This document shows, piece after piece, positions 38,101 through 60,098 of a DNA stretch of 64,000 nucleotides. How positions within the stretch are numbered: the stretch's first letter is position 1; each line of letters starts with the position of its first letter. The notes below the pieces were generated by a model, which was not told the DNA's origin, searched no databases, and saw nothing but the letters and a program-made list of their open reading frames with translations. This DNA is from an uncultured delta proteobacterium (GTDB lineage Bacteria > Desulfobacterota > Binatia > Binatales > Binataceae): contig CAWJFQ010000001.1 of NCBI GenBank assembly GCA_963842215.1, forward strand, positions 1,030,156-1,094,155. Reading direction: 5' to 3'. Both the position numbers and the translations under genes were made by a program.

Positions 38101-38900
38101 TGAGTCATCCCGGCGCAGCTTTGAACTTCACGGAGATAGAAGCACGCCTCGGCGGTCGTCTGGGTATCGCCGCCCTTGATACGGGTAGCGGCAAACAGTT
38201 GTCATATCGCGGGGACGAACGATTCGCGATGTGTTCAACTTTCAAACCGCTACTGGTGGCTAACGTACTGAAGCATGTTGAGCAAGGGTGGCTGTCTCTG
38301 GATCAGCGCGTTCCGTATGCTACCACCGATCTGATTGAGCACTCTCCCTGCACGCTGAATCGCCTTGCCGAAGGAAGCATGCCGATTGACGATCTCTGCG
38401 GCGCTACCATAGAAATTAGCGACAACACAGCGGCGAATCTCCTCTTGAGTTTAATTGGCGGACCTCCGGGCCTAACCGATTATCTGCGTGGGTTGGGCGA
38501 TTCTATAACCCGGCTCGACCGGACCGAATTGAGCCTCAATAGCAACATTCGGGGAGATGATCGGGATACGACAACGCCCGATACAATGATCAGAACCATG
38601 AGCAAGATCCTTCTCGGCGATGCCTTGTCGCCGGGTGCGCGCACCAAGCTCGTAAACTGGATGAAGAATTGCAAGACGGGATTTAGTCGCGTTCGCGCCG
38701 GGCTGCCACAGGATTGGATCGTAGGCGATAAAACTGGAACCGGCAGCAACGGAGCTGCCAACGATATCGCGATCCTTTGGCCTCCCGGACGTGCACCAAT
38801 CATGGTCGCGGCCTATCTGAGCGAATCCACCAAGTCAGCCGAAGAACTCAACGCAGCACACGCGAAAGTTGGCAGCGTCGTCGTTGCGTTTTTTTCTTGA
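38100..38900 (+). CDS. class A beta-lactamase domain lacking a signal peptide (5'-truncated, fused in frame to the IS66 remnant)
   Basis: All class A catalytic elements are present: S70-x-x-K (CSTFKP), S130-D-N (ISDNTAAN), R164-x-E166-x-x-x-N170 (RLDRTELSLN), K234-T-G (GDKTGTG). The first in-frame ATG (38100) gives MSHPGAALNF… This aligns with the mature N-terminus of TEM-type enzymes (HPETLVK…), so there is no leader. Confidence 0.7.
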   Translation: MSHPGAALNFTEIEARLGGRLGIAALDTGSGKQLSYRGDERFAMCSTFKPLLVANVLKHVEQGWLSLDQRVPYATTDLIEHSPCTLNRLAEGSMPIDDLCGATIEISDNTAANLLLSLIGGPPGLTDYLRGLGDSITRLDRTELSLNSNIRGDDRDTTTPDTMIRTMSKILLGDALSPGARTKLVNWMKNCKTGFSRVRAGLPQDWIVGDKTGTGSNGAANDIAILWPPGRAPIMVAAYLSESTKSAEELNAAHAKVGSVVVAFFS

Positions 38901-41035: not shown

Positions 41036-42205
41036 GTGCGCACCGCGCTGGATCACGCTCTCGCGAAAAAAGAGCTGACGCCTGAGGAAGGGCTGCTGCT
41101 GTACACGTCGGAGGGCGACGACCTGCGTGCGACGATCAAGTGCGCCGACCTCGCGCGCGCCGAGGACAACGGCGACGAAGTCACTTATGTCGTCAATCGC
41201 AATATCAACTTCACCAACATCTGCTTCGTGGGATGCCAGTTCTGCGGCTTCAAGCGTCAGCGCTGGGAGGCCGACGCCTATGATCATTCCGACGAGACGA
41301 TCGTGCGCAAAGTCGCTGATGCAGTCGCCCGCGGCGCGACCGAGATCTGCATGCAGGGCGGCATTAACCCCGACATGCCGCCGTTCAAATATCGCGACCT
41401 GCTCGACGCGATGAAGCGCGCCTTCCCCGAGATTCACATCCACGCGTTCTCGCCGATGGAAATCATGTACGGCGCCAAGCGCGTACGGATGGATTATCCG
41501 GAATACATCACGATGCTCAAGGAGCACGGCCTCGGCTCAATCCCGGGCACCGCGGCGGAAATCCTCGACGACGGCGTGCGCGAAATTCTGAGTCATAAGA
41601 AGGTCGACGTCGCCGCGTGGGTCGAGATAATCACTACCGCGCACGCGGTCGGCGTGCCGACGACTTCGACCGTGATGTACGGGCACGTCGAGAGTCCGCA
41701 GCACGTCGTCAATCATCTCGATTTGCTGCGCACGATCCAGAAACAGACGCATGGCTTCACCGAGTTCGTGCCGCTGCGATTCATCCATCAGAACACGATG
41801 CTCTATCGTAAGGGCCTCGTGTCGCCGGTCGATCGGGGTCAGCTCGATTTCCAGATGTACGCGTTCTCGCGCCTGTTCCTGCGCGGGCAGATCGACAATA
41901 TACAGACCTCGTGGGTCAAGTGCGGCGTCGATCTCGCCGCGCTGACGCTCAAGGCCGGATGCAACGATCTGTCGGGCACGCTGATGGAAGAGAGCATTAC
42001 GGCGCAGGCCGGCGGCGACTCGGGCGAATTCGTCCCGGTCGATCTGTTCGAGGAAAAAGCGCGAGAGATGGGCCGCGTCGCGGTCGAACGCACCACGCTT
42101 TACAAGAAGCTCTACGGAAGAAAGGCACCCAATGGCGCGCGGCCAATCGCGACCCCTCCCGCCCCGGCAGATAACCACGTTAGCGGGGGGAGTGGGTGCG
42201 GCTAA
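41036..42205 (+). CDS. cofH: FO synthase subunit CofH (radical SAM)
   Basis: 389 aa with a GTG start. Radical-SAM motif CFVGCQFCGF, preceded by VTYVVNRNINFTNIC, typical of CofH / the FbiC C-terminal half. The low-complexity C-terminal tail overlaps the cofD start by 74 nt. Confidence 0.85.
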   Translation: MRTALDHALAKKELTPEEGLLLYTSEGDDLRATIKCADLARAEDNGDEVTYVVNRNINFTNICFVGCQFCGFKRQRWEADAYDHSDETIVRKVADAVARGATEICMQGGINPDMPPFKYRDLLDAMKRAFPEIHIHAFSPMEIMYGAKRVRMDYPEYITMLKEHGLGSIPGTAAEILDDGVREILSHKKVDVAAWVEIITTAHAVGVPTTSTVMYGHVESPQHVVNHLDLLRTIQKQTHGFTEFVPLRFIHQNTMLYRKGLVSPVDRGQLDFQMYAFSRLFLRGQIDNIQTSWVKCGVDLAALTLKAGCNDLSGTLMEESITAQAGGDSGEFVPVDLFEEKAREMGRVAVERTTLYKKLYGRKAPNGARPIATPPAPADNHVSGGSGCG

Positions 42206-43098
42206 GTTCATCCGAGGACTGGTTCGGCGTATCGATCCCGCAAGGTTGACAGTCGTCGTTAACACCGGCGACGACGAAACCTTCTATGGGCTTTACGTTT
42301 CGCCCGATATCGACACCGTTACCTACACGCTCGCGGGTGCGGTGAATCGCGCGCAAGGCTGGGGACTCGAGGGCGAATCGTTCAACGTGCTGCCCGCGCT
42401 CGAGCGTTTCTATGGCAAGCCGTGGTTCGGCCTCGGCGATCGCGACCTCGCCACTCACCTATATCGCACCGAGCGGATGCGCCACGGCATGTCGCTCAGC
42501 CGAATCACGGCCGACATCGCGGAAGCATTCGCCGTCAAATCCAGAATTCTACCGATGAGCGACGACCGTGTACGCACCTTTGTGAAACTGCGCGGACGTC
42601 GCGCGATTCCGTTCCAGGAATATTTCGTGCGTGGACGTGCACGCGGCGTGGTCGAAAAGATCGAGTTGCGTGGAATCACAAGCGCGCGCGCGACTCCCGC
42701 GGTCCTCGCGGCAATTCGCGATTCCGCCGCGGTCATCCTGGCGCCGTCGAATCCATTCGTCTCGCTCGGCCCGATTCTGCAATTGACCGGGGTGCGCGAG
42801 GCGCTGCGCCGTGTGAAATCGCGCGTCGCCGCAATCAGCCCCATAGTCGGCGGCAAGACCATAAAAGGTCCCGCCGACAAAATGCTCCGTGGACTCGGGA
42901 TGGAAGTGTCGGCGCTAGGAGTTGCGCGGCTCTATCGCGACATCGTCGGGAATGTTCGTTCTCGACAATGCCGATCGGCGTTACGTCGAATCGATCGAAC
43001 GGCTTGGGATGCGCGCTATCGCCACCGACACCGTAATGGCCACGCCCGCGCGCGCCGCCGCTTTGGCTGAAGTGGTTCTGCGAGAGCTTGAGGTATAG
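42132..43098 (+). CDS. cofD: 2-phospho-L-lactate transferase CofD (apparent 1-nt frameshift near 42954)
   Basis: N-terminal TTLAGGVGAAKFIRGL and the conserved body run in frame to …ALGVARLYRDIVGN. The canonical C-terminus FVLDNADRRYVESIERLGMRAIATDTVMATPARAAALAEVVLRELEV* continues in the +1 frame to the TAG at 43096-43098. Confidence 0.75.
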
Positions 43099-46094: not shown

Positions 46095-47708
46095 TCACAC
46101 GATTATAAAATTCGCGATCATCGCCGCGTCTTCATGCGGCAATATGTGACAATGGTAGACCGACTTGCCCTTCCAGGTCTTGAAGCGCGTGCGCATCTTG
46201 AGCTCGGAAAATGGCGCGAGCCATATCGTATCGTGCAGCCGGTGATAGTCCGGATTTCCCGGCATCCCCAACACCTCGAATGAGTTGACGTGAATATGAA
46301 AGGGGTGAATACCATCCGAGTTGTTCGCGAGCGTCCATTCCTCCGCCGTACCGAGCCGGACTGTATTATCTATTCGCGTCTCCGAATACAGTTGACCGCC
46401 AATCAGAAACTCGACTCCAGTAAGTATCGACTTGACTCCATTTTTCATCGTGAATACTACTTTGCGCCGAGCTACTATCTCATCGTCGCGAATGAGTGGA
46501 TACTCACGCGTCGGCGTCGGCAGCTTGTCGGGAATACTCATATTTGCCGGTGCGCCTGAGACGATGAAATTCGCAAGCGCGATTTCCGGCGACGACATCA
46601 TCTCTCCCATTGCCTCGCTCAACAGGTTCGGCGACATTGGCATCTGTGGCAGCGCAATCAACATACCAGTCGTGGCTTTCTGCGGTGCGCGAATCAGCAC
46701 CTCGTTGCGATTTCCGGGCGCCATCCGCATAGCAGTTTTGAGGTCCTCGCCCACTCTCTCAGGCCGCAGAAGATTGATTCCGTCCTGCCCGATTACGTAC
46801 ATCTCGAAACCCGGAAGTACTATTGGCATTGGAATGCCATCGGTGCCATTGAGTATTCGTAATCGCAGCACTTCACCCGGCCGCATCTGGTAATTAGGTA
46901 ATGATTGTTTCGTAGCTAGTGGCTTCTTGCCGCGACGATCGATTACGAGCACCGGCTGCCCGTTCGCCGTGATTAACTCCATCTGAGTAGTGAAGTAGTA
47001 GCCACCCTCGTCGGCCGGCTTGTACGCAATTGGCTCCCATCCCCAGAGATCTTTTCCGTTGGCGAGCGGATTAACCTTGATGTTTTGAATAGCCAGTAGC
47101 TCGTCGCGAGCCGCCGCGATTTCCGGCACTTCGTCGATCGCTCCCTTCACCAGTATCAACCCAGCCATCCCGCCGCCGACCTGCACTGTCGCGGAGCCGT
47201 GATGGTGCGGATGGTACCAATACAAACCGGCCGGATGATCGTCTGGCAGTTGGAAGTCATAGGTGAGGCTCTGCTCCGCTCCGATCGCAATCATGCGCGA
47301 TGCGGGATCCGACGTACCGACCGGCGCGAACAGATGCGGGATCACCTGCAAGCCGTGGACGTGGAGGCTGGTGGTGTTGAAGTGATTCGGATTGTTCTCG
47401 CCATCGATTCCAGCGGGCGCGACTGCCGGCGGATCGGGCGGCAGGCTGTTCGCGAGCGTGACGCGCAAGATGTGTCCCGGCCGCGTAACCATCAGCGGCC
47501 CCGGAAGACTCGCGTTGTAGGTGCGCGTGCGCAACCGGAGACCGGCGAGCTCACGCTCGGAATATCCAACTCGCAACGTGTACGCATCGACGGATGCGGA
47601 TTGCGCCGCCTGAACCGGCTCTGGAAATAACCCGAGCATCGCGGCGCCCGCGATAGTTCCGCCTGCGGCGAGAAACTGTCGGCGTGTAAGTCGCAGCTGA
47701 TGTCCCAT
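46095..47708 (-). CDS. Tat-exported multicopper oxidase
   Basis: Twin-arginine signal MGHQLRLTRRQFLAAGGTIAGAAML. Copper-site motifs HVHG…, WYHPHHHG, HPFHIHVNSFEV, HCHILPHEDAAM. Confidence 0.8.
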   Translation of the reverse strand: MGHQLRLTRRQFLAAGGTIAGAAMLGLFPEPVQAAQSASVDAYTLRVGYSERELAGLRLRTRTYNASLPGPLMVTRPGHILRVTLANSLPPDPPAVAPAGIDGENNPNHFNTTSLHVHGLQVIPHLFAPVGTSDPASRMIAIGAEQSLTYDFQLPDDHPAGLYWYHPHHHGSATVQVGGGMAGLILVKGAIDEVPEIAAARDELLAIQNIKVNPLANGKDLWGWEPIAYKPADEGGYYFTTQMELITANGQPVLVIDRRGKKPLATKQSLPNYQMRPGEVLRLRILNGTDGIPMPIVLPGFEMYVIGQDGINLLRPERVGEDLKTAMRMAPGNRNEVLIRAPQKATTGMLIALPQMPMSPNLLSEAMGEMMSSPEIALANFIVSGAPANMSIPDKLPTPTREYPLIRDDEIVARRKVVFTMKNGVKSILTGVEFLIGGQLYSETRIDNTVRLGTAEEWTLANNSDGIHPFHIHVNSFEVLGMPGNPDYHRLHDTIWLAPFSELKMRTRFKTWKGKSVYHCHILPHEDAAMIANFIIV

Positions 47709-47777
47709 GTTCCCTTCCCCGAATGAAGCGCCAGCCAACTCGAAAAAGAATGCGGATTCAATTATCAAAAACTTTCG

Positions 47778-47785
47778 TTTGACGT
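47778..47785. repeat. target-site duplication (left copy), TTTGACGT
   Basis: Identical 8-mer abutting both inverted repeats (second copy at 50157-50164). An 8-bp duplication is typical of the IS1595 family. Confidence 0.7.
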
Positions 47786-47809
47786 GGGGATTATGTTGAT
47801 GTTGACTCC
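47786..47809. repeat. left terminal inverted repeat of the IS1595-family unit
   Basis: Seen directly in the sequence. Its reverse complement matches 50133-50156 at 22 of 24 positions. Confidence 0.75.
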
Positions 47810-47886
47810 CAACGTCAAGGTAGGCGAAAGTGAGCGATGAAATACGATGCTCGCGAGACTATTTGCAAGACTACTTTGGGGAGCCA

Positions 47887-48129
47887 ATGGAACTGATTCT
47901 CACGTATCGGGGGCCGCTGCCTTCAGGGCAAGGTAAAAACAAGAAAGCGCGTGGTAAGCGGAACGTACGAAGCTCACAATGCGCGAACAGTTTCATGCGC
48001 AGTTGCGCCACCACTGGAGTTCGGTTGAGCCGCTTCGCAAGTGGTATAGGAATGGAGCTTTTGAATTCAATCAAATTAAGCCAGAACAGTTTCCGTCTTC
48101 ATGGTCGGCAATTCGCGTTCCACAAGTAA
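47887..48129 (+). CDS. small ORF upstream of and overlapping the RusA-like gene (possible frameshifted N-terminal part, or separate passenger)
   Basis: GGGGAG ribosome-binding site, then MELILTYRGPLPSGQGKNKKARGKRNV… This resembles the N-terminal strand of RusA-type resolvases. It overlaps the next ORF in another frame. Confidence 0.2.
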   Translation: MELILTYRGPLPSGQGKNKKARGKRNVRSSQCANSFMRSCATTGVRLSRFASGIGMELLNSIKLSQNSFRLHGRQFAFHK

Positions 48130-48497
48130 AGGTTCTTTTCGCGCCGTTGGTTATTACTGGTCTATATCTGAAATTGGTCTGCGAACTCGACATTGAAATT
48201 CTCTCGCGCGACGAACCAGGATCGATTGTCAATTCCGGCGATCTCGACAATCGATTAAAAGTTCTGATCGACGCTCTTCGGATGCCGCTGGCAAATGAAA
48301 ACTGCATCTATGCTCCGCCAACAGATTACGTCTGCTTTTGTTTGCTGGAAGACGACAAACTGATAACGAGATTTCAGGCTAAGACGAGTCGTTTGCTCCG
48401 TCCAATTTTCGGCGGCGAAAATCCCGAAGACGTTGAAGTTACGATCAAGGTGGCAATACGGGCAAGCGATCTTAGTGTTTGGCCGTTAAAAGCCTAG
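47979..48497 (+). CDS. RusA-like Holliday-junction resolvase family protein (passenger gene)
   Basis: 172 aa. GDLDNRLKVLIDAL plus a downstream EDDKLI acidic motif and FGGENPEDVEVTIKV C-terminal strand match the RusA DxDN…K…DAL…D catalytic signature. The N-terminus is uncertain. Confidence 0.45.
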   Translation: MREQFHAQLRHHWSSVEPLRKWYRNGAFEFNQIKPEQFPSSWSAIRVPQVKVLFAPLVITGLYLKLVCELDIEILSRDEPGSIVNSGDLDNRLKVLIDALRMPLANENCIYAPPTDYVCFCLLEDDKLITRFQAKTSRLLRPIFGGENPEDVEVTIKVAIRASDLSVWPLKA

Positions 48498-48530
48498 CCG
48501 CTTAGGAAGCCAAATTAGTATGCTGCGCGG

Positions 48531-48953
48531 ATGGACAAATCGAATGCCGACATCCTCACACAGTCTCGGGCTCGCTTGCGGATCGTCATGGGCGAAAAAG
48601 CGCGTATATGGGCGCAGGTTCAGGAACTCAAAACCGAATTCGATACAAAATATAAAGCGTTGGATTGGGAAGCTGTTGTCCATCCGAGACGCGAGTCTGC
48701 CGAGGGGATACTTCAAGTCATGAAGTCAATTAGTCGATTGCTCGTGATAGGAAACAAAACTGAGGGTGTTCTGATTCATAAATTCAAAGCATCAGATTCA
48801 AGTCTGCCATCGGTTGCGAGAACGCTGAAAGTTGCGGAACGGACGCTACTGGATATGGAACGGCTTCGCGCGTCGATAGCGCAAGCGATCTATGACATCG
48901 ATTTCCATCGCGCAAAGGCGCGGGGAAAGAAACCGAAAAACGGTCGCGGTTAA
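48531..48953 (+). CDS. hypothetical passenger protein
   Basis: 140 aa with codon usage unlike the host genes. No recognisable family. Confidence 0.35.
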   Translation: MDKSNADILTQSRARLRIVMGEKARIWAQVQELKTEFDTKYKALDWEAVVHPRRESAEGILQVMKSISRLLVIGNKTEGVLIHKFKASDSSLPSVARTLKVAERTLLDMERLRASIAQAIYDIDFHRAKARGKKPKNGRG

Positions 48954-48959
48954 CTCTGG

Positions 48960-49134
48960 AGTGCTCGCTTCAACTGCGCTGCGAGCTTGGCGACTTCGAC
49001 ATCGAGCCAGAAGGCTTTTGCTTTTTCGAGGGCGAGAGAATGGGCTTCAGCATGTTTTTTAATTTCTCGATATCGACGTGTCGGAGTTTTTCGCGCAACT
49101 CTTCGTCTTCTTGTTTCGTTTGTTCGCTGACCAT
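48960..49134 (-). CDS. small coiled-coil passenger protein (apparent frameshift at an A-run)
   Basis: MVSEQTKQEDEELREKLRHVDIEKL… in one frame. The coiled-coil tail …KKHAEAHSLALEKAKAFWLDVEVAKLAAQLKRALQS continues in another frame, with the junction at the AAAAAA run near 49045-49050. Confidence 0.25.
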
Positions 49135-49172
49135 CCCGTGATGTTAGCACGGGTTTTGCGAAGCGACCAACG

Positions 49173-50105
49173 CTACACAGTTTGAAGTAGTTTCGTAAAC
49201 ATTTCAGGATCGTTGCGCCCGTTGAATCGGAATGCAAATTCATTGACGTACAGCGGCAGATACTCGCGCGTGACGTGATGAAACGATCCCATGATGCCGC
49301 GCTTCAACAATGACCAGAACGATTCGATCGTCTGTGTGTGAACGGAGCCGGTCACGTACTGGTGTGCGCTGTGGTTGACAGTTTTGTGAACGAAACCATG
49401 GCCGCGCAGATGGCGATAGCCTTTGTGCTCATCGGTCACGACCAGCTTGGCTCTGGTCGAAACCGCTTCCGAGACAAAATCCGCTATCGTGGTAAATCCC
49501 ATTTCGTCAACGGCTTTAGCGATGACGCTGCCCTTGCGCGAGATCGCGCCGATGACTGTCAATTTGCCTGAACCCTGTGGTCCTGAACTCTGACTCTTCT
49601 TGTCCCAATGTTTGTTTTTGTCTTTGCCGCCGATGTACGTTTCGTCAACTTCGACAATGCCCTCAAGCTGATCGATTCCGCCACGCATCGCGCATCGAAG
49701 CCGCATGCACATAAACCAGCTTGTGCGATAGTCGGAGCCAGAGTCTTCGCCGAACACTGTGCGATGAATCTGAAGCGCGCTGATTCCCTTTTTTGCGGTC
49801 AGCATCAAGTAGGCAACGCGAAACCAAATATCGAGCGGAATTTTCGTATCCTGAAAGATCGTTTTCGTGATGACGCTGAATCGATAGCCGCCGTTCTTGG
49901 CGCACGTAACGGGTTTGCCATCGGCATCGGTCGTGACCTTGCCGCTCTTGCAGACCCAATGAAACGGGCGCGCCTTGAGCGTGATAACGCGCTTATTCCC
50001 GCATCGCGGACAGACCGGACCGTCAGGCCAACGGCACTCGGCTAGCAGCTTCTTACACGCGTCTTCGTTGGGAAAGTCAGCCTCAAAGGCTTTCAGCGTT
50101 TTCAT
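49173..50105 (-). CDS. IS1595-family transposase (N-terminal zinc-ribbon plus DDE domain)
   Basis: 310 aa. Zinc-binding CPRCGNKRV…C…C, then a DDE_Tnp_IS1595-type core (EVDETYIGGKDKNKHW … VTDEHKGY … ESFWSLLKRGIMGSFHHVTREYLPLYVNEF). Confidence 0.8.
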   Translation of the reverse strand: MKTLKAFEADFPNEDACKKLLAECRWPDGPVCPRCGNKRVITLKARPFHWVCKSGKVTTDADGKPVTCAKNGGYRFSVITKTIFQDTKIPLDIWFRVAYLMLTAKKGISALQIHRTVFGEDSGSDYRTSWFMCMRLRCAMRGGIDQLEGIVEVDETYIGGKDKNKHWDKKSQSSGPQGSGKLTVIGAISRKGSVIAKAVDEMGFTTIADFVSEAVSTRAKLVVTDEHKGYRHLRGHGFVHKTVNHSAHQYVTGSVHTQTIESFWSLLKRGIMGSFHHVTREYLPLYVNEFAFRFNGRNDPEMFTKLLQTV

Positions 50106-50132
50106 GATATGGATATTACACTTTTAGGGAAT

Positions 50133-50156
50133 TGGAGTCAACAGGAACATAATCCC
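50133..50156. repeat. right terminal inverted repeat of the IS1595-family unit
   Basis: See the left inverted repeat. Confidence 0.75.
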
Positions 50157-50194
50157 CTTTGACGTGAGGCGAAAAAAGAGCGAAAACATACATT

Positions 50195-51079
50195 GTGGCT
50201 GCTCTCCCCAAACCTTCGTGGTTCAACCCTTCAAACCCGATTCGGACTGTTAGACCGGCCACGGTTAGCCCGGTTAAAAAGCCACAAATACTTGAATTTT
50301 CAGGAGTTTTTCGTGGTCACGAACTCACTCGCAAGGATCGCCGCCTAAGCTCCGGCCTTGCCTCGATCGACACACTTATTGACGGCGGAATTCCGCGTGG
50401 GCGAATAAGCGAAATCACTGGACGAGCCGGTTCGGGCAAGACTTCGATTGCCGCATCATTCGCCGCCTTCGCTACCCGCCGCGGCGAGGTCGCCGCATGG
50501 CTCGACGCCTCAGGCGCTTTCGATCCTGAGAGCATGGCGGCCGCGGGCGTAGAGCTGCGCCGGATGTTGTGGGCGTCGATGACGACGGCGTCGCGGATTG
50601 CGCGCGCGTCTACCTACGCCCGCTTCGCAACCGGCCCGTGCACGCATAAACAATCGGCGATTGTCAAAGCTGCGGAACTCGTGCTCGAGGCGGGGGGCTT
50701 CGGCCTGGTCGTCGTCGATTTCGGTGAGGCGCCGCGCGCACTCGCGCACGCATCTGCCCTGCGAATTGCACGCGCGGCCGAGCGCAGCGGCACAGCCGTG
50801 ATCGCGATCGCACCGTGGCGGATGTGCGGGACGTTCGCGGCGCTTAGCCTGACTGCGAGCCGCGCCGAAATGTCGTTCAGCCGGCTCGCTCCTGGCTCAC
50901 CGGTAATGTTCGACGGACTCGCGGTGGATGCGATGGTCGCGCGAAACAAGATGGGCGGGACCGGGCGGCGTGTTCGCGTTCGCGCGCTGGTCGATCCAAT
51001 TCCAAATCCATTCGACTTGCATCCGCATCCCGACTGCGCGGGCAAGGAATCGCCGGTTCGAATTTCCGCAAGCAGCTAG
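50195..51079 (+). CDS. imuA: ImuA (RecA/SulA-like protein of the imuA-imuB-dnaE2 mutagenesis cassette)
   Basis: SSGLASIDTLIDGGIPRGRISEITGRAGSGKTSIA (degenerate RecA-fold P-loop). Positioned directly before imuB. Confidence 0.7.
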   Translation: MAALPKPSWFNPSNPIRTVRPATVSPVKKPQILEFSGVFRGHELTRKDRRLSSGLASIDTLIDGGIPRGRISEITGRAGSGKTSIAASFAAFATRRGEVAAWLDASGAFDPESMAAAGVELRRMLWASMTTASRIARASTYARFATGPCTHKQSAIVKAAELVLEAGGFGLVVVDFGEAPRALAHASALRIARAAERSGTAVIAIAPWRMCGTFAALSLTASRAEMSFSRLAPGSPVMFDGLAVDAMVARNKMGGTGRRVRVRALVDPIPNPFDLHPHPDCAGKESPVRISASS

Positions 51080-51091
51080 CGCGGTGTCACG

Positions 51092-52825
51092 ATGGCTCGT
51101 ATCGCGTGCATCATGGTCGCCGATTTTTCTATTGCGGCGCTGGTGCGCTCGAACCCCGCGTTCGCCCGCAAGGTGCTGGCTATCGGCCGCAGCCTCGCGC
51201 CGCACGCCGAGCTCGATGCCGTTGCGCCGTGCGCGCGCGAACTTGGCATCCGTCCCGGGATGACGATCGCGCAGGCGCGAGCGATTTCCTCGGACCTGAT
51301 CGTCGTCCATCGCTCACCCGCCGCGGAAAGCTCGGCGCATTCCGCCCTGCTCGACGCAGTTGAATCCGTTTCGCCGGTGGTCGAATCGGGCGAGCCGGGA
51401 TGCGCGTGGATCGATCTCGCCGGCCTGCACCGCATCTACCACAACGAAGAAGAAATTACCGCCGAGCTCACGCGATGTGTGCGCCGAGTCGGGATGGAAC
51501 CCGCCGCCGGCGTCGCGGCCAACAAGGAACTCGCGCATCTAGCCGCGCGATGCGGCGGCGTGCGTGTGATCGAAGCCGGGCGCGAGCGCGAATTCCTGAA
51601 CTGGCTGCCGCTCGACATGCTCGGCCTGGGAAAATCGGATCGTGGCGACGACCTCGAGACCACGCTTGCCCGGTGGGGGATGCGCCGGCTCGGCGAGCTC
51701 GCGCGCCTCAATCCTGAGGCGGTCGGCACTCGGCTTGGCCGTCGCGGCGTCGAGCTGGTACGCCTCGCGCGCGGCGGCAGTCATGCGCCGCTGGTGCCGC
51801 GCCGCCGCGCCGAGTTTTTTGTCGAAACCGTCGAGCTTGAATACGGCATCGAGAATCTCGAGCCGCTGGGATTCGTCATGCGGGCGATGCTCGAGCGGCT
51901 CGCCGAGCGGCTTTCGCTTCGCGGCATGGTCGCCGGCGATATCACGCTCGCGTTTGGAATGAGCGGTCATCGCAGTTTCAATCGACGGATCGAGGTCGCG
52001 GCGCCGTCGAATGATGTTCGCGCGATTCTCACCCTCATCAACCTGAGCCTCGAGGCGGCGCCGCCCGAAGCCGCCATCGAATCGATTCGAATCGAGATTG
52101 CGCCGCGGGTCCCGCGTCCCGCCCAGACCGATATGTTCCTGCCGCCCTGTCCTGCGCCGGACAAGCTGCAGACCACGATCGCGCGGCTGGCGGCGCTATG
52201 CGGTCCCGGCAACGTCGGCACGCTCAGCGCCGAAAATTCATATCGGCCCGAAGCGATGCGGCTCGATCCATTCGCACCGCCCGCTCCGCCTCCGATACCC
52301 GAAAAAGCGGCCGCAAAGAATGTGACGCAGCTCGTGATTCGCGCGATTCGCCCGGCGCGCGAAATCGAGGTGATGTGCTCGCGGGAGATTCCAGAGTTTG
52401 TCCGCGGCGAGAATCTTGGCGCACGCGTCATCTCTATCGCCGGGCCGTGGCGACGCGATGGCGAATGGTGGCTGAGCTGCACTGTCGATGATCTTCAGCA
52501 CACGGATTTGTCCAATCAAAAAAATCCCGCACCGACGCGAGGTCTCGAGCTACATGACGGGCGTATGTTCGGAGCACATCCGCGCCAGGTATCAGCGGAA
52601 AATTTGAAGACGCTGTCCTCGCTCACGCCAACGCCGGCCTCGCTCAATCCTCATCTCAGTCTCAATGGCGCCTGCGGCAACAATTCGCGAGCGGCAATGA
52701 ACGGCGGAAATAAATGCGGCTTCATCCGCGATTACTACGAACTCGCGCTAGAAGACGGCGGCGTTTATCGCGTCTTCCGCGATGTGAACTCACACAAATG
52801 GTTCCTAGACGGCGCCTACGATTGA
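51092..52825 (+). CDS. imuB: ImuB (catalytically inactive Y-family polymerase-like protein)
   Basis: 577 aa. The N-terminal UmuC-like fold MARIACIMVADFSIAAL lacks the canonical acidic catalytic triad context. Typical ImuB length and position. Confidence 0.8.
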   Translation: MARIACIMVADFSIAALVRSNPAFARKVLAIGRSLAPHAELDAVAPCARELGIRPGMTIAQARAISSDLIVVHRSPAAESSAHSALLDAVESVSPVVESGEPGCAWIDLAGLHRIYHNEEEITAELTRCVRRVGMEPAAGVAANKELAHLAARCGGVRVIEAGREREFLNWLPLDMLGLGKSDRGDDLETTLARWGMRRLGELARLNPEAVGTRLGRRGVELVRLARGGSHAPLVPRRRAEFFVETVELEYGIENLEPLGFVMRAMLERLAERLSLRGMVAGDITLAFGMSGHRSFNRRIEVAAPSNDVRAILTLINLSLEAAPPEAAIESIRIEIAPRVPRPAQTDMFLPPCPAPDKLQTTIARLAALCGPGNVGTLSAENSYRPEAMRLDPFAPPAPPPIPEKAAAKNVTQLVIRAIRPAREIEVMCSREIPEFVRGENLGARVISIAGPWRRDGEWWLSCTVDDLQHTDLSNQKNPAPTRGLELHDGRMFGAHPRQVSAENLKTLSSLTPTPASLNPHLSLNGACGNNSRAAMNGGNKCGFIRDYYELALEDGGVYRVFRDVNSHKWFLDGAYD

Positions 52826-52863
52826 CAAAGAAATATGAGTATTGACGTTTGTATAGGCATTTG

Positions 52864-52877
52864 CCTACGCTAATTGA
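52864..52877. promoter_or_regulatory. candidate BrnA operator palindrome
   Basis: Perfect palindrome TAGGCA-TT-TGCCTA 16 bp upstream of the brnT start. A TTGACA hexamer lies at 52833-52838. Confidence 0.3.
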
Positions 52878-52892
52878 GTTAAATGAAGAAAG

Positions 52893-53204
52893 TCCCCTTT
52901 TCAGGATTTGCGTGGGACAACGACTAACTATTCGAAGTGTCAGAAACACGGCGTCTCGATCGCCGAAGTGGAGCATGTTCTTGCTCATGCGGCGACCCTG
53001 ATTGTGCCCGACCTGAAGAATTCGCGCGCGGAGTCGCGTTTCCTGGCGATCGGGCGAACGCAAGAAGGACGATACGCCTTCGTCGTTTTCACGCCGCGGC
53101 AAACTCGCGGTGGGATACTCTTGCGTCCCATAGGCGCCCGCTACATGCACCGGAAGGAGATTAGAAAATATGAACAAGAAATTGCCCGCGTTCAAAAACG
53201 ATAA
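52893..53204 (+). pseudogene. brnT: BrnT-family ribonuclease toxin with a 1-nt frameshift after codon 14
   Basis: MKKVPFSGFAWDND then a TAA stop in frame. The rest of BrnT (NYSKCQKHGVSIAEVEHVL…RFLAIGRTQEGRYAFVVFTPRQ…LRPIGARYMHRKEIRKYEQ) continues in the +1 frame. Confidence 0.65.
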
Positions 53205-53463
53205 GGAAGCTGAAAACTTCCTTGATCAGGATCTGTCCGACTACATCAGCGCCGAAAACTTCGCACCGTTTCAGTTCGAGTTCAGGCCAAAGCAAAAGTC
53301 GGTCAATCTTCGAATCTCCGAAGAACTCCTGAACGCGGTCCGTGCCGTCGCGCATCGCCGAGGCATCCCTTACCAGCGTTTCATTCGCCAAACCCTCGAG
53401 TCCGCGCTGGCGCCAAAAGAGCCTGGCTTTAGAAAGAAATCCGCGCGCCGCTCGGGCAAATGA
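53170..53463 (+). CDS. brnA: BrnA-like antitoxin (CopG/RHH family)
   Basis: 97 aa overlapping the toxin 3' end by 35 nt. C-terminal RHH-type region SVNLRISEELLNAVRAVAHRRGIPYQRFIRQTLESAL. Confidence 0.65.
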   Translation: MNKKLPAFKNDKEAENFLDQDLSDYISAENFAPFQFEFRPKQKSVNLRISEELLNAVRAVAHRRGIPYQRFIRQTLESALAPKEPGFRKKSARRSGK

Positions 53464-53477
53464 TCTGATCGATAGGC

Positions 53478-56400
53478 GTGATGTCCGTTTCTAGCGTCGC
53501 ATCGCCCATGAACTCCGACTACATCGAACTTCGCGCGCGCAGCGCGTTCAGCTTTCTCGAAGGCGCGACCACGCCCGAGGACCTCGCCGCACGCGCGGCG
53601 GAATTCGAATACAGCGCGATGGCGCTTGGCGATCGCGACGGAGTTTACGGCGCGCCGCGCTTTTACCTGGCTGCCAAGGCCGCGGGTATCCGGCAAATCG
53701 TCGGCGCTGAACTGACGCTGGACGACAACTCGCGCCTCTACGTTCTCGTCCCGGATCGCAAGTGTTACCGGAATCTCTGCCGCATGATCACCGACTCGAA
53801 AATGCGCGTCCTCAATACCGGCGCGCTCGCACGCGACGGCTCTGCCGCTGCACCCGTCTATCCGGCCAAGGGCGAGAGCCGCATTACGCTGGAGCAGCTT
53901 GAACTCTATGGCCACGGACTCATCTGCCTGGCCGGCGGCGTGATGAGCCCGCTATCGCGTATGCTCGTGCGCGGCGACGATCCGCGCGAAATGAGCCGGC
54001 GGCTCGGCGGGATTTTCGGCGCGGCAAATCTATACATTGATCTGCAGCGTCATCTCGACGCCGGCGAGGAACGCCTCAACCGCAAGCTCGGCGCACTGGC
54101 TAGTGCGATGCGAATCCCGATTGTCGCGAGCAACGACGTATGCCACGGCGGCTCGGATCGCAAATTGCTCGACGTGCTGACCTGCATTCGGCTCAAGACC
54201 ACGCTCGAAGAAGCCGGCCGTGCATTGTGGATCAACAGCCAGCGTCATCTTAAATCGCCAGCCGAGATGACCGCACTGTTTCGCGATATGCCCGGCGCTG
54301 TCGCCGCGTCGCGCGCGATTGCCGAGCGATGCGCTTTCCAGCTCTGCGACATGGGCTATCGGTTTCCTGACTATCCGATTCCACCGGGAGAAACGCCCGA
54401 CAGCTATTTGCGCATGCTCACTTACGCAGGTGCGAGAGACCGATGGCGCGGCGCAATCGACGATCGCACACGCCATCAGCTCGAACACGAGCTCGGAATC
54501 ATCGAGCGGCTCAAGCTCGCCGGCTACTTCCTCATCGTGTGGGACATCGTCCAGTTCTGCCGTGAGAATCGAATCATGGTGCAAGGACGCGGCTCCGCGG
54601 CTAACAGCGCAGTATGTTACGCGCTCGGAATCACCGCGGTGGACGCCGTCAAAATGGAGCTTCTGTTCGAGCGCTTTCTTTCCGAGGAGCGCGGCGAATG
54701 GCCCGACATCGATCTCGACCTGCCCAGCGGTGACGATCGCGAGCAGGCGATTCAATACGTCTATCGGCGCTACGGCGAACGCGGCGCCGCGATGACCGCG
54801 AACGTGATCACATATCGCACCAGGAGCGCGGTGCGTGAAGTCGGCAAGACCCTCGGCTTCTCGCCCGAACAGGTCGATCGGCTCGCCAAGCTCAACCAGG
54901 TGTACGAGTTTCGCGACCAGCACGACGATCTGGTGGCGCTACTCAAGCGCGGCGGTGTCGACGCGGAAGCGCCGCGCATCATGATGCTCGTCGACCTCGT
55001 GCGCAGGATTCAGAGTTTGCCGCGCCATCTCGGACAGCATAGCGGCGGCATGGTTATCGCCGCGCAGCCGCTCGATGAGATCGTCCCGCTCGAGCCCGCC
55101 TCAATGCCTGGCCGCGTGGTAATCCAATGGGACAAGGACGACTGTGCTGATCTCGGCCTCATCAAGATTGATCTGCTCGGACTTGGGATGCTGGCCGCGC
55201 TGAAAGAAGCACTTCCGATGATTCATGCGCACGAAGGCGTCGAGCTCGATCTCGCGCATCTTCCGCAAGACGATCCCGACGTGTACGCGATGCTTCGGCG
55301 CGCGGATACCGTCGGCGTTTTTCGATCGAGAGCCGCGCGCAGATGGCGACACTTCCGCGGATGAAGCCCGAACGATTTTACGACCTGGTGGTCGAGGTCG
55401 CTATAATTCGACCCGGTCCCATCGTCGGAAAAATGGTCCATCCTTATCTCGATCGCCGCAACCATCGCGCGCCCATCGAGTATCCGCATCCTTCGCTCGA
55501 GCCAATTCTCAAACGCACGCTCGGCGTTCCGCTCTTTCAGGAACAGTTGCTCCGCATGGCAATGACGGTCGCGGGATTCAGCGGCGGCGAGGCTGAGGAG
55601 CTGCGCCGCGCGATGGGATTCAAACGTTCCGCCGAGCGGATGGAAAAAATCGAAGCGCGACTGCGCGCCGGCATGTTGCGCAACGGCCTCCAGGGCAGTC
55701 TCGCCGACGACATCGTGCGTTCGATCACTTCCTTTGCGCTGTATGGCTTCCCCGAATCGCACGCCGCCAGCTTTGCCCTGATCGCGTATGCGTCGGCGTA
55801 CTTGAAGTATCATCATCCCGCCGCGTTCCTGGCCGCGATGCTGAATTGCTACCCGCTCGGCTTTTATCATCCTTCGACGCTGGTGAAAGACGCCGCCCGT
55901 CACGGCGTCACCGTCATGCCCGCCGACGTGACCCGCTCGAACTGGAAATGCACCCTTGAGATTGTCGATCGAAGGCCCGCGGTGCGCATGGGACTGCGAT
56001 ACGTCACCGGCTTGCGCGAGGAAGTCGGACTTCGAATCGAAAGCGAGCGTGCGCGGCGGCAGTTCGATTCGATCGCCGATTTTACCGCGCGCGTCGGACC
56101 CAATCGCCGCGAAATAGACGCCCTCGCCTACGCCGGCGCGTTCGCCGCTTTCGGCCTGGCGCGGCGTGACGCCATGTGGAATGCCGCCGCCGTCGAGCGC
56201 GATCCCACCAGCCTGCTCGCCGGCGCCAAGCCGCGCGACGGCGAGGTCCCCCTCGCATCGATGTCGCCGATCGATGAAACGCTGGCCGACTACGCCGCGA
56301 CCGGCCTTACCACCGGCCCTCATCTGATGACTTACCTCCGCGCCGATTTGACCGCGCGCGGAATTCTCAGTGCCGACCAGCTCACGCGCGGCAAACATCA

Positions 56401-56677
56401 GTCGTGGGTGAAGACCGCCGGCGTCGTCATCGTGCGCCAGCGCCCCGGCACCGCCAAGGGCTTCTTGTTCATCACGCTCGAGGACGAAACCGGGATTTCC
56501 AATCTGATCGTCACGCCCGACCTGTTTCAGAAAAACCGCCTGCTGCTGCGCAGCGCCGGAATCCTGATGGCCGAAGGCGTTTTGCAGAGAATTGACGGCG
56601 TCACCGCGATTCGGGCGCGCCGCTTCGAGGAGATTAAAATTCCCGGCGCGATACCGCCCTCGCACGATTTTCATTGA
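53478..56677 (+). CDS. dnaE2: error-prone DNA polymerase DnaE2 (apparent 1-nt frameshift near 55323)
   Basis: Two overlapping ORFs (628 aa and 444 aa) are collinear with the PHP, polymerase core and OB domains of DnaE2. The junction reads …ADTVGVFRSRAARRW in frame 1, but the conserved …[36 protein letters not shown] is only recovered by shifting frame. Confidence 0.8.
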
Positions 56678-56779
56678 AATCGATCGCGCGATTTCACACT
56701 TAGACCGATGCGGTGTTGTATGTATCAAGCAGCTGCGACGGATTCATCCGCGCGACGACGACCAACCACGGGAGGCAAC

Positions 56780-57634
56780 ATGAACCGCGACACTCAACGA
56801 GCCAAGGCCGAAGCTTTTCGGGCGATGCACGATCGCTCGCGAATTCTGGTCCTGCCGAACGCATGGGACGCGATGAGCGCCCGTGTCATCGAGCAAGCCG
56901 GCGCGCGCGCGATTGCCACCACCAGCGCCGGCGTCGCATTTTCAGTCGGCTATCCTGACGGCGAAGCGATTCCGCGCGACGAGATGATTTCCGCCGTTGC
57001 TCGCATCGCCCGCGTCGTGACGATTCCGGTCACCGCCGACATCGAGTCCGGCTTCGCACGCGACACCCGCGAACTCGCCGAAACCATTCGTCGCGTAATC
57101 GATGCCGGCGCCGTCGGCATCAATCTGGAAGACCAGGTCCACGCCGGCACTCCGTCGCTCTACGATTTGGATACCGCCGCACAGCGCGTGCGCGCCGCCC
57201 GCGACGCTGCCGACTCCGCCGGAGTTCCGCTGGTCATCAACGCGCGCACTGACGTCTATCTGCTCGCAATCGGCGAGCCTGACAGCCGCTTCGAGCATGC
57301 TATTCGTCGCGCGAACGCATATCGCAAGGCCGGTGCCGACTGCCTGTTCCTGCCGGCTGTTACCCGTCGCGCCGACATCGAGCGAATCGTGCCCGCCCTC
57401 GAAGGCCCGCTCAACCTGCTGGCGTTCCCTGGTCTTCCGGCCATCTCCGAGCTTGAACGCCTCGGCGTTGCGCGCCTGAGCGTCGGCACCAGGCTGGCTC
57501 TCAACGCCATGTCGGCCCTGGACAAAACTGCGCGGGAACTGGCGACTGCGGGCAGCTACGACGCGATGTTCGAGGGCGCCAGCACCAGCTTCGCCGACGC
57601 GAATCGCCTGATGGCGACTCGGAAAGCTCAGTAG
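56780..57634 (+). CDS. isocitrate lyase / PEP mutase family protein (2-methylisocitrate-lyase or carboxyvinyl-carboxyphosphonate phosphorylmutase-like)
   Basis: About 285 aa. LVLPNAWDAMSARVIEQAG…TTSAGVA and GINLEDQV motifs of the ICL/PEPM superfamily. Confidence 0.75.
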   Translation: MNRDTQRAKAEAFRAMHDRSRILVLPNAWDAMSARVIEQAGARAIATTSAGVAFSVGYPDGEAIPRDEMISAVARIARVVTIPVTADIESGFARDTRELAETIRRVIDAGAVGINLEDQVHAGTPSLYDLDTAAQRVRAARDAADSAGVPLVINARTDVYLLAIGEPDSRFEHAIRRANAYRKAGADCLFLPAVTRRADIERIVPALEGPLNLLAFPGLPAISELERLGVARLSVGTRLALNAMSALDKTARELATAGSYDAMFEGASTSFADANRLMATRKAQ

Positions 57635-57755
57635 CCTACAGCTCGCAAAGCCGCCATTTCTGCACATGCGTAACCGGTTTTTTCGGTTAACGTACATTAA
57701 GATTAGAGCGGAGCCTCCAACGAATGTGGCTCTCGACTCAATCAAGGAGTTGATT

Positions 57756-58313
57756 ATGGTTTCGAAGTTGTCTCGCGGTATCGTTCCCGTAGCAATGGCA
57801 ATTCTGCTGGTTGCGGCTGTCGCACATGTCGCTTCATCGAATTCCGGCGGTGGCGCCGGCCACATGGGGCATCATGGGTTCCGCCACGGCGGTGGCATGG
57901 ACATGCTTGGCGTCCCTCTTCCCCTCTTGCTCAGAACCGCCAATCTGACTGACTCGCAGAAACAGCAGATTCGCGCCATCTTTCAGGCCCGACGAGCTTC
58001 GCGAAAGGCTGAATTCCAGCAGCTCAAAGCCGCCAAGGAAGCAATCGCGGCCAAGTACACCTCGACCGGCACAGTAGCGGCCAGCGACCTATCCGGTTCG
58101 GTCGCGACCATCACGCAACTTCACGATCAGATGACGAACGAGCAGGTTCAGGACGCAATCGCGATCCGCAACGTGCTGACCTCGGCTCAGCTCGCGCAAA
58201 TTTCCGCGACCAAGGCCAAGCTTGACTCGATTCACGCCGAGATGAAGGCCCTGTGGGCCCAGAGCGGCAGCAGCCCCAGCGGCTCGCCGACAGATTCAAC
58301 TTCGAGCGATTAA
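57756..58313 (+). CDS. periplasmic LTXXQ-motif protein (Spy/CpxP/ZraP family) with His-rich metal-binding segment
   Basis: AAGGAG ribosome-binding site, signal peptide, then a His/Gly-rich stretch GHMGHHGFRHGGGMDM and two LTxxQ motifs (LTDSQKQQI, LTSAQLAQI). Confidence 0.6.
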   Translation: MVSKLSRGIVPVAMAILLVAAVAHVASSNSGGGAGHMGHHGFRHGGGMDMLGVPLPLLLRTANLTDSQKQQIRAIFQARRASRKAEFQQLKAAKEAIAAKYTSTGTVAASDLSGSVATITQLHDQMTNEQVQDAIAIRNVLTSAQLAQISATKAKLDSIHAEMKALWAQSGSSPSGSPTDSTSSD

Positions 58314-58392
58314 TAAGCGTTCGGTTCGGTAACCTCCCCACCCCGCCGGATGGAGTTGTGGCTCACAAGCTGCAACTCCGTCCGGCTTTTCT

Positions 58393-59193
58393 TTACTCAG
58401 GCATGAACGATGGACTGCCCGTCTTCGCCGTTTGTCCGCCGTCCGCGACGAACGCTGCGCCTGTAACAAATGACGCCAGGTCGGACGCGAGGAACAGCAC
58501 CACGCTCGCCATTTCATCGGGACGTCCCAACCGGCCCATCGGAATTGCTTCCTTCATCCGATCCGCGAATCCCGGCTGCGATAACGCCGGCGCTAGAAGT
58601 GGAGTGTCGATCGCGCCGGGACAGATGCAGTTGGCGCGAATTCCATACGGTGCATATTCGATCGCGACCGCGCGCGTCAGATTTATCACGCCGGCCTTGG
58701 CCGCGTTATACGCCGGAATTCCGTAGTCGGCCCGCAAGCCCGAAATCGACGCGGTGTTGACTATTGCGCCGCTCCCTTGCGCGCGCATCACCGGCAGCAC
58801 CCGCTTCATCGCGCGAAATACGGCGCTCAGTCCCACCTCTATCATATGATCCCACACCGCGTCGTTCACGTCCGCCGTGCGCCCCGCTACCTGCGTGCTG
58901 CTAAGCGCGGCAGGCATGCCAAATGCGTTGTTGTGCAGCACGTCGATACGCCCGAACGTGGAACTAGTCCGCGTGATCATCGCATCGATATCGGCCGCGC
59001 GCGTGACGTCGGCAACGATCGCGATCGACTTGCCGCCGGCGGCCGTGATCTCCGCCACCACTTTGTTCGCATTCTCCTCGTTGATATCGGCGACAGCGAC
59101 CGAACCGCCAAGTCGGGCAAAGCCAATCGCAGTAGCGCGCCCAATCCCGGAACCCGCCCCGGTGATCAACGCCGCCTTTCCATTGAATTGCAT
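58393..59193 (-). CDS. SDR-family oxidoreductase
   Basis: TGAGSGIGRA glycine motif, a NNAG motif, and a YxxxK catalytic region. Confidence 0.8.
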   Translation of the reverse strand: MQFNGKAALITGAGSGIGRATAIGFARLGGSVAVADINEENANKVVAEITAAGGKSIAIVADVTRAADIDAMITRTSSTFGRIDVLHNNAFGMPAALSSTQVAGRTADVNDAVWDHMIEVGLSAVFRAMKRVLPVMRAQGSGAIVNTASISGLRADYGIPAYNAAKAGVINLTRAVAIEYAPYGIRANCICPGAIDTPLLAPALSQPGFADRMKEAIPMGRLGRPDEMASVVLFLASDLASFVTGAAFVADGGQTAKTGSPSFMPE

Positions 59194-59342
59194 AGTAGTC
59201 ATCTCCCGCTCGGGCAGTAGCAAGCGCGCAAAGAATTGTAAAACAAAACCCTCGAACGAGGACGAAGTCCTGAATCCTCCGCACTAACCGCCTAACGCAA
59301 AAATGCGCTAGTCTCCATCGAAAGTTTTTGGGAGACGCGCTG

Positions 59343-60098
59343 ATGAGACTCAAAGGAAAAGTTGCGTTAATCACTGGCGGCGGCTCTGGAATGGGCCGTG
59401 CGGCCTCACTGCTGTTTGCCCGTGAAGGTGCAAAAGTCGCAGCTATCGACATAACCGAAGCCTCCGCCGCCGAGACCGCCCGGATGATCAAAGCCGCAGG
59501 CGGGGAGGCCATTTCTTTGCGCGCCGACGTGTCCGACTCGGAAGGCGCGCGCGCGATGGTCGAAGAGACTGTCCGCGCCTTCGGCGGACTCGACGTGCTT
59601 TATAACAACGCCGGAATTGAAGGCGAGTCCGGCTTCACCGCGCAGCTCAGCGAAGATGCGTTCGACCGCGTGATTGCCATTAACCTCCGCGGCGTGTGGC
59701 TCGGCATGAAGTACGGACTGCCGAAGATCGTCGAACGCGGTGGCGGCGCGGTAATCAACACCGCCTCGGTCGCGGGACTGGTCGGAGTAAAAGGCGCGTC
59801 CGCGTATTGCGCGGCCAAAGCCGGCGTGATTGCGATGACCCGGGTCGCCGCCCTCGAGTACGGCCGTTACAAAGTCCGCGTCAACTGCATCTGCCCCGGT
59901 GTCATTCAGACTCCCATGGTGGATCGGATCACCGGGCCCGACGGATTGCAGCCCAGGTTCATTCAGCGCAATTCGGTGCTCGGCCGCGTCGGCGCCGCTG
60001 ACGAAATCGCGCACACTGCTCTCTTCCTTGCCAGCGACGAAGCTCCCTTTGCCACCGGAGCGCCCTTTATCATCGACGGCGGATGGGTCGCCGGCTGA
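59343..60098 (+). CDS. SDR-family oxidoreductase
   Basis: ITGGGSGMGRA, NNAG, and SAYCAAKAG (YxxxK). Confidence 0.8.
   Translation: MRLKGKVALITGGGSGMGRAASLLFAREGAKVAAIDITEASAAETARMIKAAGGEAISLRADVSDSEGARAMVEETVRAFGGLDVLYNNAGIEGESGFTAQLSEDAFDRVIAINLRGVWLGMKYGLPKIVERGGGAVINTASVAGLVGVKGASAYCAAKAGVIAMTRVAALEYGRYKVRVNCICPGVIQTPMVDRITGPDGLQPRFIQRNSVLGRVGAADEIAHTALFLASDEAPFATGAPFIIDGGWVAG

Follow-up and report, generated by a model that had tools for sequence, protein, structure and literature searches.

The imuA-imuB-dnaE2 (ImuA'BC) cassette of Caulobacter, Pseudomonas, and Mycobacterium is the canonical SOS mutagenesis cassette, and BrnT/BrnA (PF04365 / PF12441) is a type II toxin-antitoxin (TA) system first described in Brucella abortus. 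Here, we analyzed a stretch of 64,000 nucleotides from an uncultured Binataceae bacterium, a Candidatus Binatus of the phylum Binatota (GCA_963842215.1, contig CAWJFQ010000001.1, positions 1,030,156 to 1,094,155; hereafter, the window), in which a brnT-brnA pair stands between imuB and dnaE2. The closest described layout is the dinB-yafN-yafO-yafP operon of Escherichia coli, where two promoters drive yafNO, the SOS-regulated one of dinB and an autoregulated one of its own, and the pair is missing in 40-50% of the strains via repeated precise deletion (PMC2814082, PMC3105422). The explanation that we favor, and consider probable, is that an ordinary chromosomal type II TA inserted long ago in the imuB-dnaE2 spacer, that the imuA promoter was kept, and that the frameshifts seen in dnaE2 and in cofD, a gene outside the cassette, are technical.

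At the gene level, the order is the same as in the canonical cassette. The imuA gene (50195-51079, + strand) is the first of the operon, holds a syntenic position in all the relatives compared, and encodes a RecA-fold accessory protein, probably of the ImuA'-like type (Pfam RecA, 45.9 bits; cutoff 27). Its start codon is GTG, and the aligned position is ATG in relatives. The imuB gene (51092-52825, +) encodes a catalytically dead homologue of Y-family polymerases with Pfam IMS (56.2 bits) and IMS_C domains: when aligned to PDB 7yll, the SIDEAYLD of DinB corresponds to EPGCAWID, with Gly-Cys in place of the catalytic Asp-Glu, and the protein lies far under every NCBIfam DinB cutoff. After the Y-family core, ImuB presents the pattern QTDMF, which resembles a clamp-type motif (Qxx[LM]F-like). 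An exact-sequence look-up of the window ImuB matched no record.

The dnaE2 gene (53508-56677, +) encodes an error-prone C-family polymerase and is split over two open reading frames (ORFs; 53478-55364 and 55343-56677) that jointly cover the Pfam PHP, DNA_pol3_alpha, finger, HHH_6, and OB domains. It starts at the ATG in 53508 (MNSDYIELRARSAFSFLE), which is kept in every relative, rather than at the GTG in 53478. With the missing A restored, DnaE2 reaches 1268.6 bits against the NCBIfam model NF004225 (error-prone DNA polymerase; cutoff 939) over residues 3-1056. The window resembles the canonical cassette in its dead ImuB with a candidate clamp-type motif, in a DnaE2 over the curated cutoff, in the RecA-fold protein encoded first, and in a conserved operator-like box overlapping the promoter. 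It differs in the TA pair between imuB and dnaE2, in an ImuA that stays under the NCBIfam ImuA_translesion cutoff (31.7 bits vs. 150), and in that no lexA was found nearby. An earlier, sequence-only reading of this DNA had named imuA, imuB, brnT, brnA, and dnaE2; the Pfam and NCBIfam profiles agree with these identities, and every feature that it described is present, at or within about 30 nt of where it had been placed.

Regarding the TA module, brnT (52883-53204, +) is the toxin gene, with a PF04365 match of 67.4 bits (cutoff 34.5; profile positions 8-77) on the ORF 52908-53204. Its true start is the ATG in 52883, from which it reads MKKVPFSGFAWDND and then a stop, so that the FAWD motif of the N terminus falls ahead of the frameshift, in the other frame. 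Without the extra base, brnT encodes 106 aa and the FxWD...KHGV motif is complete. The antitoxin gene brnA (53170-53463, +) is intact, shares 35 nt with the 3' end of brnT, and encodes a protein of the CopG/ribbon-helix-helix type (PF12441, 96.5 bits; cutoff 28), which scores 20.2 bits against the NCBIfam equivalog BrnA_antitoxin_add (cutoff 60). PDB sequence searches with BrnT and BrnA gave non-significant matches only (E = 0.31). PADLOC, run on BrnT, BrnA, the passenger ORFs of an insertion sequence (IS) upstream of imuA, and a 125-aa ORF of distant relatives (both described below), returned nothing beyond one insignificant match. As in the known BrnT/BrnA system, both Pfam models are well over their cutoffs, the gene of the toxin precedes and overlaps that of the antitoxin, and a palindrome lies upstream; in contrast to it, the toxin ORF of the window is frameshifted and the BrnA equivalog model is not reached.

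The insert begins directly after the imuB stop, ends a few bases short of the dnaE2 ATG (at most about 45 nt from the brnA stop), and has the same orientation as the operon. Just upstream of brnT we located a putative promoter with an operator palindrome (52842-52871, +), which presents a TTGACG -35-like hexamer (52842-52847), a TACGCT -10-like hexamer (52866-52871), and the palindrome TAGGCATTTGCCTA (TAGGCA-TT-TGCCTA) at 52854-52867. This palindrome occurs once in the window, vs. 0.00 expected by chance, and belongs to a 19-nt element (TGTATAGRCRTTWGCMTAC) conserved at 12 loci. The 19-nt element stays upstream of brnA in loci where brnT was deleted or truncated (L004, L078; L numbers denote the loci compared). 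A palindromic operator of its own had been proposed for the pair: the palindrome is indeed present, unique, and conserved, and its operator role is what we infer from the sequence.

We compared the junction among relatives using an ImuB scan with one genome per species, which retrieved 78 loci, nearly all of them from metagenome-assembled genomes (MAGs) of Candidatus Binatus and other Binataceae, many of which the Microflora Danica project assembled from long reads. An exact look-up of the BrnA protein added the sister contig L079, which is 96.9% identical to window positions 50153-59452 and encodes an identical BrnA. Among 41 close Binatus genomes (window included), 15 carried brnTA or a brnA remnant at exactly the imuB-dnaE2 junction (14 of 40 without the window), whereas the remaining 26 had a bare 20-nt spacer. 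In ten of them, brnT-brnA lies directly between the imuB stop and the dnaE2 ATG (L001, L005, L007, L008, L011, L024, L034, L062, L079, and the window); in three, the imuB 3' end recurs after brnTA as a direct repeat of 88-96 nt with 96-100% identity (L023, L027, L078); and in two, brnA and the upstream element are found without brnT (L004, L015). The synteny of relatives agrees with the previous claim that the junction is contiguous as a rule and that brnTA truly interrupts it. The same claim had called the arrangement unusual, and this part did not hold, with the same junction occupied in 14 of 40 related species-level genomes and a direct precedent in E. coli dinB-yafN-yafO-yafP.

The insertion appears to be old, because the divergence of brnTA matches that of dnaE2: the synonymous divergence (dS) of brnT and brnA is about 0.5, equal to that of dnaE2 in the same genomes. 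Both genes are under purifying selection, with ratios of nonsynonymous to synonymous divergence (dN/dS) of 0.135 for brnT and 0.05 for brnA. The toxin gene is intact (106-113 aa) in nine relatives, L079 included, whereas L062, assembled from short reads, has a frameshifted copy, L078 a truncated one, and L004 and L015 none, through deletion. On a neighbor-joining tree of imuB and dnaE2, the presence of brnTA was scattered; the branch of the window and L079 is artificially long, since a longer imuB segment was used for both, and only the scatter among the other taxa was considered. The simplest history would be a single old insertion followed by repeated loss.

The repeats around brnTA in L023, L027, and L078 comprise the imuB 3' end and the spacer, which points to an insertion with a long target duplication. 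Such flanking direct repeats would offer a route for the scar-free, precise excision of brnTA. Their coordinates are 11473-11568 and 12228-12323 in L023, 11473-11561 and 12211-12299 in L027, and 706-793 and 1247-1334 in L078.

BrnA paralogues with 68-80% identity were also found at unrelated loci (L080, 5001-5261; L081, 5001-5297; L082, 5001-5273), as expected for a mobile TA family. No brnT was called upstream of them; they may be orphan antitoxins, or their toxins may have been missed through frameshifts.

At the functional level, the favored explanation can be laid out as follows. The module, with BrnT as an RNase-family toxin and BrnA as a ribbon-helix-helix antitoxin, would have entered the spacer of about 20 nt in an ancestor of a Candidatus Binatus lineage, and would since have persisted in only part of the species. 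BrnA or the BrnTA complex would bind the palindrome and repress the promoter of the module. Because no terminator lies between the genes, transcription from the imuA promoter would read through brnTA into dnaE2, and the brnTA promoter would act as a second input into dnaE2, a layout like that of E. coli dinB-yafNO-yafP. No + strand terminator was predicted at the imuB/brnT or brnA/dnaE2 junctions. Rfam gave no match in 47000-57500 at E <= 0.1. At its threshold, the promoter scan missed the promoters of imuA and brnTA, and only the transposase promoter inside the IS was found.

In both cases, a co-oriented type II TA separates a gene of Y-family type from its downstream neighbor in a damage-response operon. 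As for yafNO, the presence of brnTA in Binatus is patchy (15/41), a conserved element accompanies the TA, terminators are missing, and flanking repeats that could mediate the loss exist. The two systems differ in the TA family, in the order of the TA genes (the toxin comes first in BrnT/BrnA and the antitoxin in YafN/YafO), and in the polymerase system, which is ImuA-ImuB-DnaE2 in Binatus (Binatota) and Pol IV in E. coli. Moreover, transcription from two promoters is known for E. coli yafNO, whereas for Binatus brnTA it would be expected by analogy, as would the induction by damage.

The imuA promoter and its candidate operator (50159-50194, +) consist of a TTGACG -35-like hexamer (50159-50164) and a direct-repeat box, GCGAAAAAAGAGCGAAAAC (50169-50187), followed by 7 nt to the GTG. 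All the Binatus relatives share TTGACR, a few bases, GCGAARAAAGRGCGAAAAY, 7-9 nt, and the start codon, whatever lies further upstream, which gives the architecture TTGAC-N6-GCGAA-N6-GCGAAAA(Y). The 19-nt box was exactly conserved in 46 of 79 loci, as a single copy that invariably stands directly before imuA; the window has one occurrence (0.03 expected), and relaxed forms were found in more distant Binataceae. The spacing from the box to the start suggests a leaderless or nearly leaderless imuA mRNA, with the operator between -35 and -10.

When we scanned metagenomes for the box architecture (loci L083-L202), we retrieved 123 sites, and a first ORF of at least 80 aa could be called at 81 of them. 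The box preceded imuA at 15 sites, a radical-SAM gene (DNA-repair-type, SplB-like) at 12, dnaE2 at eight, ORFs spanning imuA-imuB at seven, a small membrane protein (~69 aa, with a structured 5' leader) at seven, and dnaB at one; it was also found upstream of imuB. The GCGAA-N6-GCGAAAA box therefore looks like the mark of a so far uncharacterised DNA-damage-type regulon. Since elsewhere it precedes other DNA-damage genes, the operon of the window is probably damage-inducible. To our knowledge, the box matches no LexA box; the direct repeat of Binatus resembles loosely the GAAC-N7-GAAC direct repeat of Alphaproteobacteria. A LexA box had been suggested as something to look for between the multicopper oxidase gene and imuA: a conserved operator-like box was found there, but not a LexA motif that could be named.

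Between that multicopper oxidase gene (46095-47768, divergently oriented) and imuA lies an IS1595-family element of 2372 bp (47786-50157, - strand), with its transposase in 49173-50105 (-). The transposase matches Pfam DDE_Tnp_IS1595 (2e-40), Zn_ribbon_IS1595, and NCBIfam NF033547 (187.9 bits). Inverted repeats of 24 nt (47786-47809 and 50134-50157), 92% complementary and the sole two copies in the window, limit the element, and an 8-bp target duplication, TTTGACGT, flanks it (47778-47785 and 50158-50165). Because this duplication includes the -35 box, the conserved promoter/operator remains attached to imuA. In the favored explanation, the insertion is recent and the core imuA promoter is kept. 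Without the IS, the arrangement of the multicopper oxidase gene and imuA is that of L001, L003, L008, and L013. We rejected the idea that the IS deprives the cassette of its promoter: the target duplication regenerates the -35 box, and the conserved 44-nt promoter/operator adjoins imuA. The sequence-only reading had described the IS as separating the cassette from its upstream region, which does not apply to the conserved promoter/operator at 50159-50187, still next to imuA.

At the technical level, both single-nucleotide frameshifts described previously in brnT and dnaE2 are present in the sequence. In brnT, an extra A at 52923 creates a TAA stop (52925-52927) after 14 codons, and all relatives (L079 and 11 further loci were compared) read AACG-C. 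In dnaE2, one A is absent between 55323 and 55324, giving GVF-RSRAARRW in place of a conserved motif; all relatives read TTTTTCAGATCGAG, each of them single-frame at this site. A third 1-nt insertion was found as a control outside the cassette, in the F420-biosynthesis gene cofD (~42153-43070, +): positions 42948-42952 (+) read GTCGGGAATG vs. GTCGGG-CTG in about 40 relatives, the last ~48 codons are frameshifted, and the Pfam CofD match ends at profile position 242 of 290. Further frameshifts were sought at abutting ORF pairs using a codon-usage scan, and the pairs proved to be normal boundaries (Lhr/DUF1275, E1 alpha/beta, DAO), with cofD as the only addition.

The sister contig L079 is intact at the brnT and dnaE2 sites and carries four frameshifts of its own in 9.3 kb, one in dnaE2 (window position 55775) and three further downstream. 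Private frame-breaking indels of 1-2 nt in imuB and dnaE2 were present in 10-12 of 27 long-read MAGs vs. none of six short-read MAGs. The long-read MAGs were assembled from Nanopore data alone and polished once with Medaka (PMC12313526). The window BrnA protein is recorded on a contig of 2,020,056 bp, a length that indicates a long-read assembly for the window too. Moreover, the codon differences between the dnaE2 genes of the window and L079 were 73 synonymous and 23 nonsynonymous, and the dN/dS of dnaE2 against relatives was 0.073, with a group median of 0.085, showing no relaxed constraint. For dnaE2 and cofD, the most likely origin of the frameshifts is an error in the consensus of a metagenome assembled from long reads. 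For brnT, the frameshift may be the same type of error, but it might be real, a toxin-inactivating mutation as in several relatives, and the case for an error is weaker than for dnaE2.

Several points weigh against the favored explanation. The frameshifts were called errors indirectly, by comparison with other assemblies; the three indels lie outside long homopolymers, the classic Nanopore error context; and two of the three fall inside the cassette. The toxin gene was broken or lost in L062, which is a short-read assembly, and in L078, L004, and L015, so real toxin loss occurs in the lineage and could apply to the brnT of the window too. Regarding transcription, the brnTA hexamers match eight of 12 consensus positions, under the promoter-scan threshold, and the scan did not report them, so the promoter activity is something that we infer. 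Regarding damage control, a tblastn search with E. coli LexA on all the DNA collected for comparison gave no match, so the box could not be tied to LexA, and no LexA-like protein was found downstream of the box among the metagenome hits.

One alternative, which we regard as unlikely, is that the breaks are genuine and that real point indels are inactivating brnT and the mutagenesis cassette of this strain, perhaps following the arrival of the IS upstream. It draws on two frameshifts that are unambiguous in the sequence, on their position outside long homopolymers, on the independent breaks and deletions of brnT in the four relatives just named, and on an IS 37 nt upstream of imuA. However, dnaE2 shows no relaxation of constraint, either against relatives or against L079, an equivalent frameshift affects the unrelated cofD, the same genes are frameshifted at other positions in the sister assembly, indels of this kind appear in long-read MAGs alone, and the IS left the conserved promoter intact. 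The cofD frameshift, the intact sites of L079, the restriction of the indels to long-read MAGs, the 73:23 codon differences, and the lack of a proper slippery heptamer also speak against the view of the sequence-only reading, which took the frameshifts for a decaying cassette or for expression that depends on error correction. That reading had accepted that it would be left with a merely conserved arrangement if reads showed assembly errors and relatives carried brnTA routinely. The comparison of assemblies and the synteny in 14 of 40 relatives largely lead there.

A second alternative, which seems doubtful to us, is that brnTA was recruited into the regulation of the mutasome: read-through upon damage would shift the balance of toxin and antitoxin and arrest growth during translesion synthesis, and an internal promoter controlled by BrnA would set a damage-independent level of DnaE2. 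The module runs in the direction of the operon, no terminator was predicted around it, the brnA stop lies close to the dnaE2 ATG (~45 nt or less), purifying selection has maintained the module throughout the divergence of the species, and other inserts occupy the same junction in Binataceae. Nevertheless, about two thirds of the close relatives do without it, the toxin was lost first in several lineages, close BrnA paralogues exist at unrelated loci, and the analogous yafNO of E. coli is dispensable and variably present.

A wider form of this proposal, to which we give similarly little credence, would have brnTA co-opted as an antitoxin-controlled internal promoter and growth brake, with damage inducing the TA by read-through and altering the supply of DnaE2. 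The imuB-dnaE2 junction of Binataceae would then be favored for the insertion of accessory genes (brnTA, the 125-aa ORF, and mprF-virJ), which would come under the control of the GCGAA-N6-GCGAAAA damage box.

Finally, it is scarcely credible that programmed ribosomal frameshifting or transcriptional slippage restores full-length BrnT and DnaE2, a candidate that we rejected: the dnaE2 site does follow a run of five Ts (GTTTTTCGATCG), where a -1 slip on TTT would give a peptide close to the conserved motif, but about 70 relatives, including L079, encode both proteins in one frame at these positions and none conserves the shift, the brnT site (AAC GAC TAA) has no slippery sequence, the T5 run is shorter than known slippage tracts with its heptamer out of the X XXY YYZ phase, and the region contains no Rfam element.

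Returning to the explanation of an old TA insertion, a literature search on imuA, imuB, and dnaE2 together with toxin-antitoxin systems gave no title or abstract describing a TA pair inside this cassette, and a survey of Y-family operons did not mention toxins. The combination of a TA with an ImuABC cassette appears to be unreported, yet it is not a new kind of thing. If the working proposed here is true, Binatota, a soil phylum with no cultured members, shares the layout of E. coli dinB-yafNO, and a selfish TA lodged in a damage-inducible translesion operon with two promoters would be a recurrent outcome rather than an oddity of E. coli. These results are also a warning that single-base frameshifts in long-read metagenome assemblies should not be taken as pseudogenes or recoding without read support. 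Possibly more useful are two by-products of the analysis, the conserved direct-repeat box before imuA and other repair genes and the hot spot for IS1595 elements at the imuA -35 box.

Regarding this hot spot, IS1595-type terminal repeats (...GGATAATCCCC) abut the imuA TTGAC -35 box in at least 10 of 47 loci, at about 9000-9100 of the locus. IS ends at this position were observed in L004, L011, L014, L021, L028, L031, L033, L049, L058, L064, and L065, and these sequences indicate that the imuA -35 box is an insertion hot spot for IS1595 elements. In L011, a 42-nt mini-element consists of the two ends only and has its own 8-bp duplication, GTTGACTT; L028 and L033 present a version of about 50 nt. 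The IS ends of L021 and L065 possibly resemble, on their inner side, the imuA box/promoter. The contig L079 stops 5 bp inside the right end of the IS (its position 1 is 50153 of the window), which suggests that the same IS occupies the same site and is multi-copy in that genome; a multi-copy IS would explain the break in the assembly.

The element of the window is like the IS1595 family in its DDE_Tnp_IS1595 transposase with an N-terminal zinc ribbon, its terminal inverted repeats, and its 8-bp duplication. Unlike that family, it carries about 1.3 kb of passenger ORFs of no recognisable family (47830-49243; 172, 140, and 97 aa), which gave no match in Pfam, NCBIfam, or PADLOC. The ORF starting at 47888 (MELILTYRGPLPS...) and the ORF 47979-48497 may belong to a single gene that one more frameshift, close to an A-rich run, has interrupted.

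Other genes were also observed at the imuB-dnaE2 junction of Binataceae. Six distant members (L020, L036, L048, L053, L056, and L057) present there, at about 11500-12100, a different conserved ORF of ~125 aa (MENWKGVVIAESLGNPTIINRYPVERALISKPFEW...NIPESQLDFEDI) that matched no Pfam or PADLOC family. A 4-kb insert in L053 (11973-16036) and L077 (11591-15723) encodes two proteins, one of 887-914 aa that is an MprF-like lysyl-phosphatidylglycerol synthase and one of 525-529 aa that is VirJ/AcvB-like.

Apart from the cassette, the window contains at 37716-38897 (+) an ORF that matches the class-A beta-lactamase domain Beta-lactamase2 (5.4e-44) and, in its upstream part, a C-terminal fragment of IS66. 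It lies in a stretch with a weak codon-usage score (~36.8-39.7 kb) and may be an acquisition associated with a mobile element.

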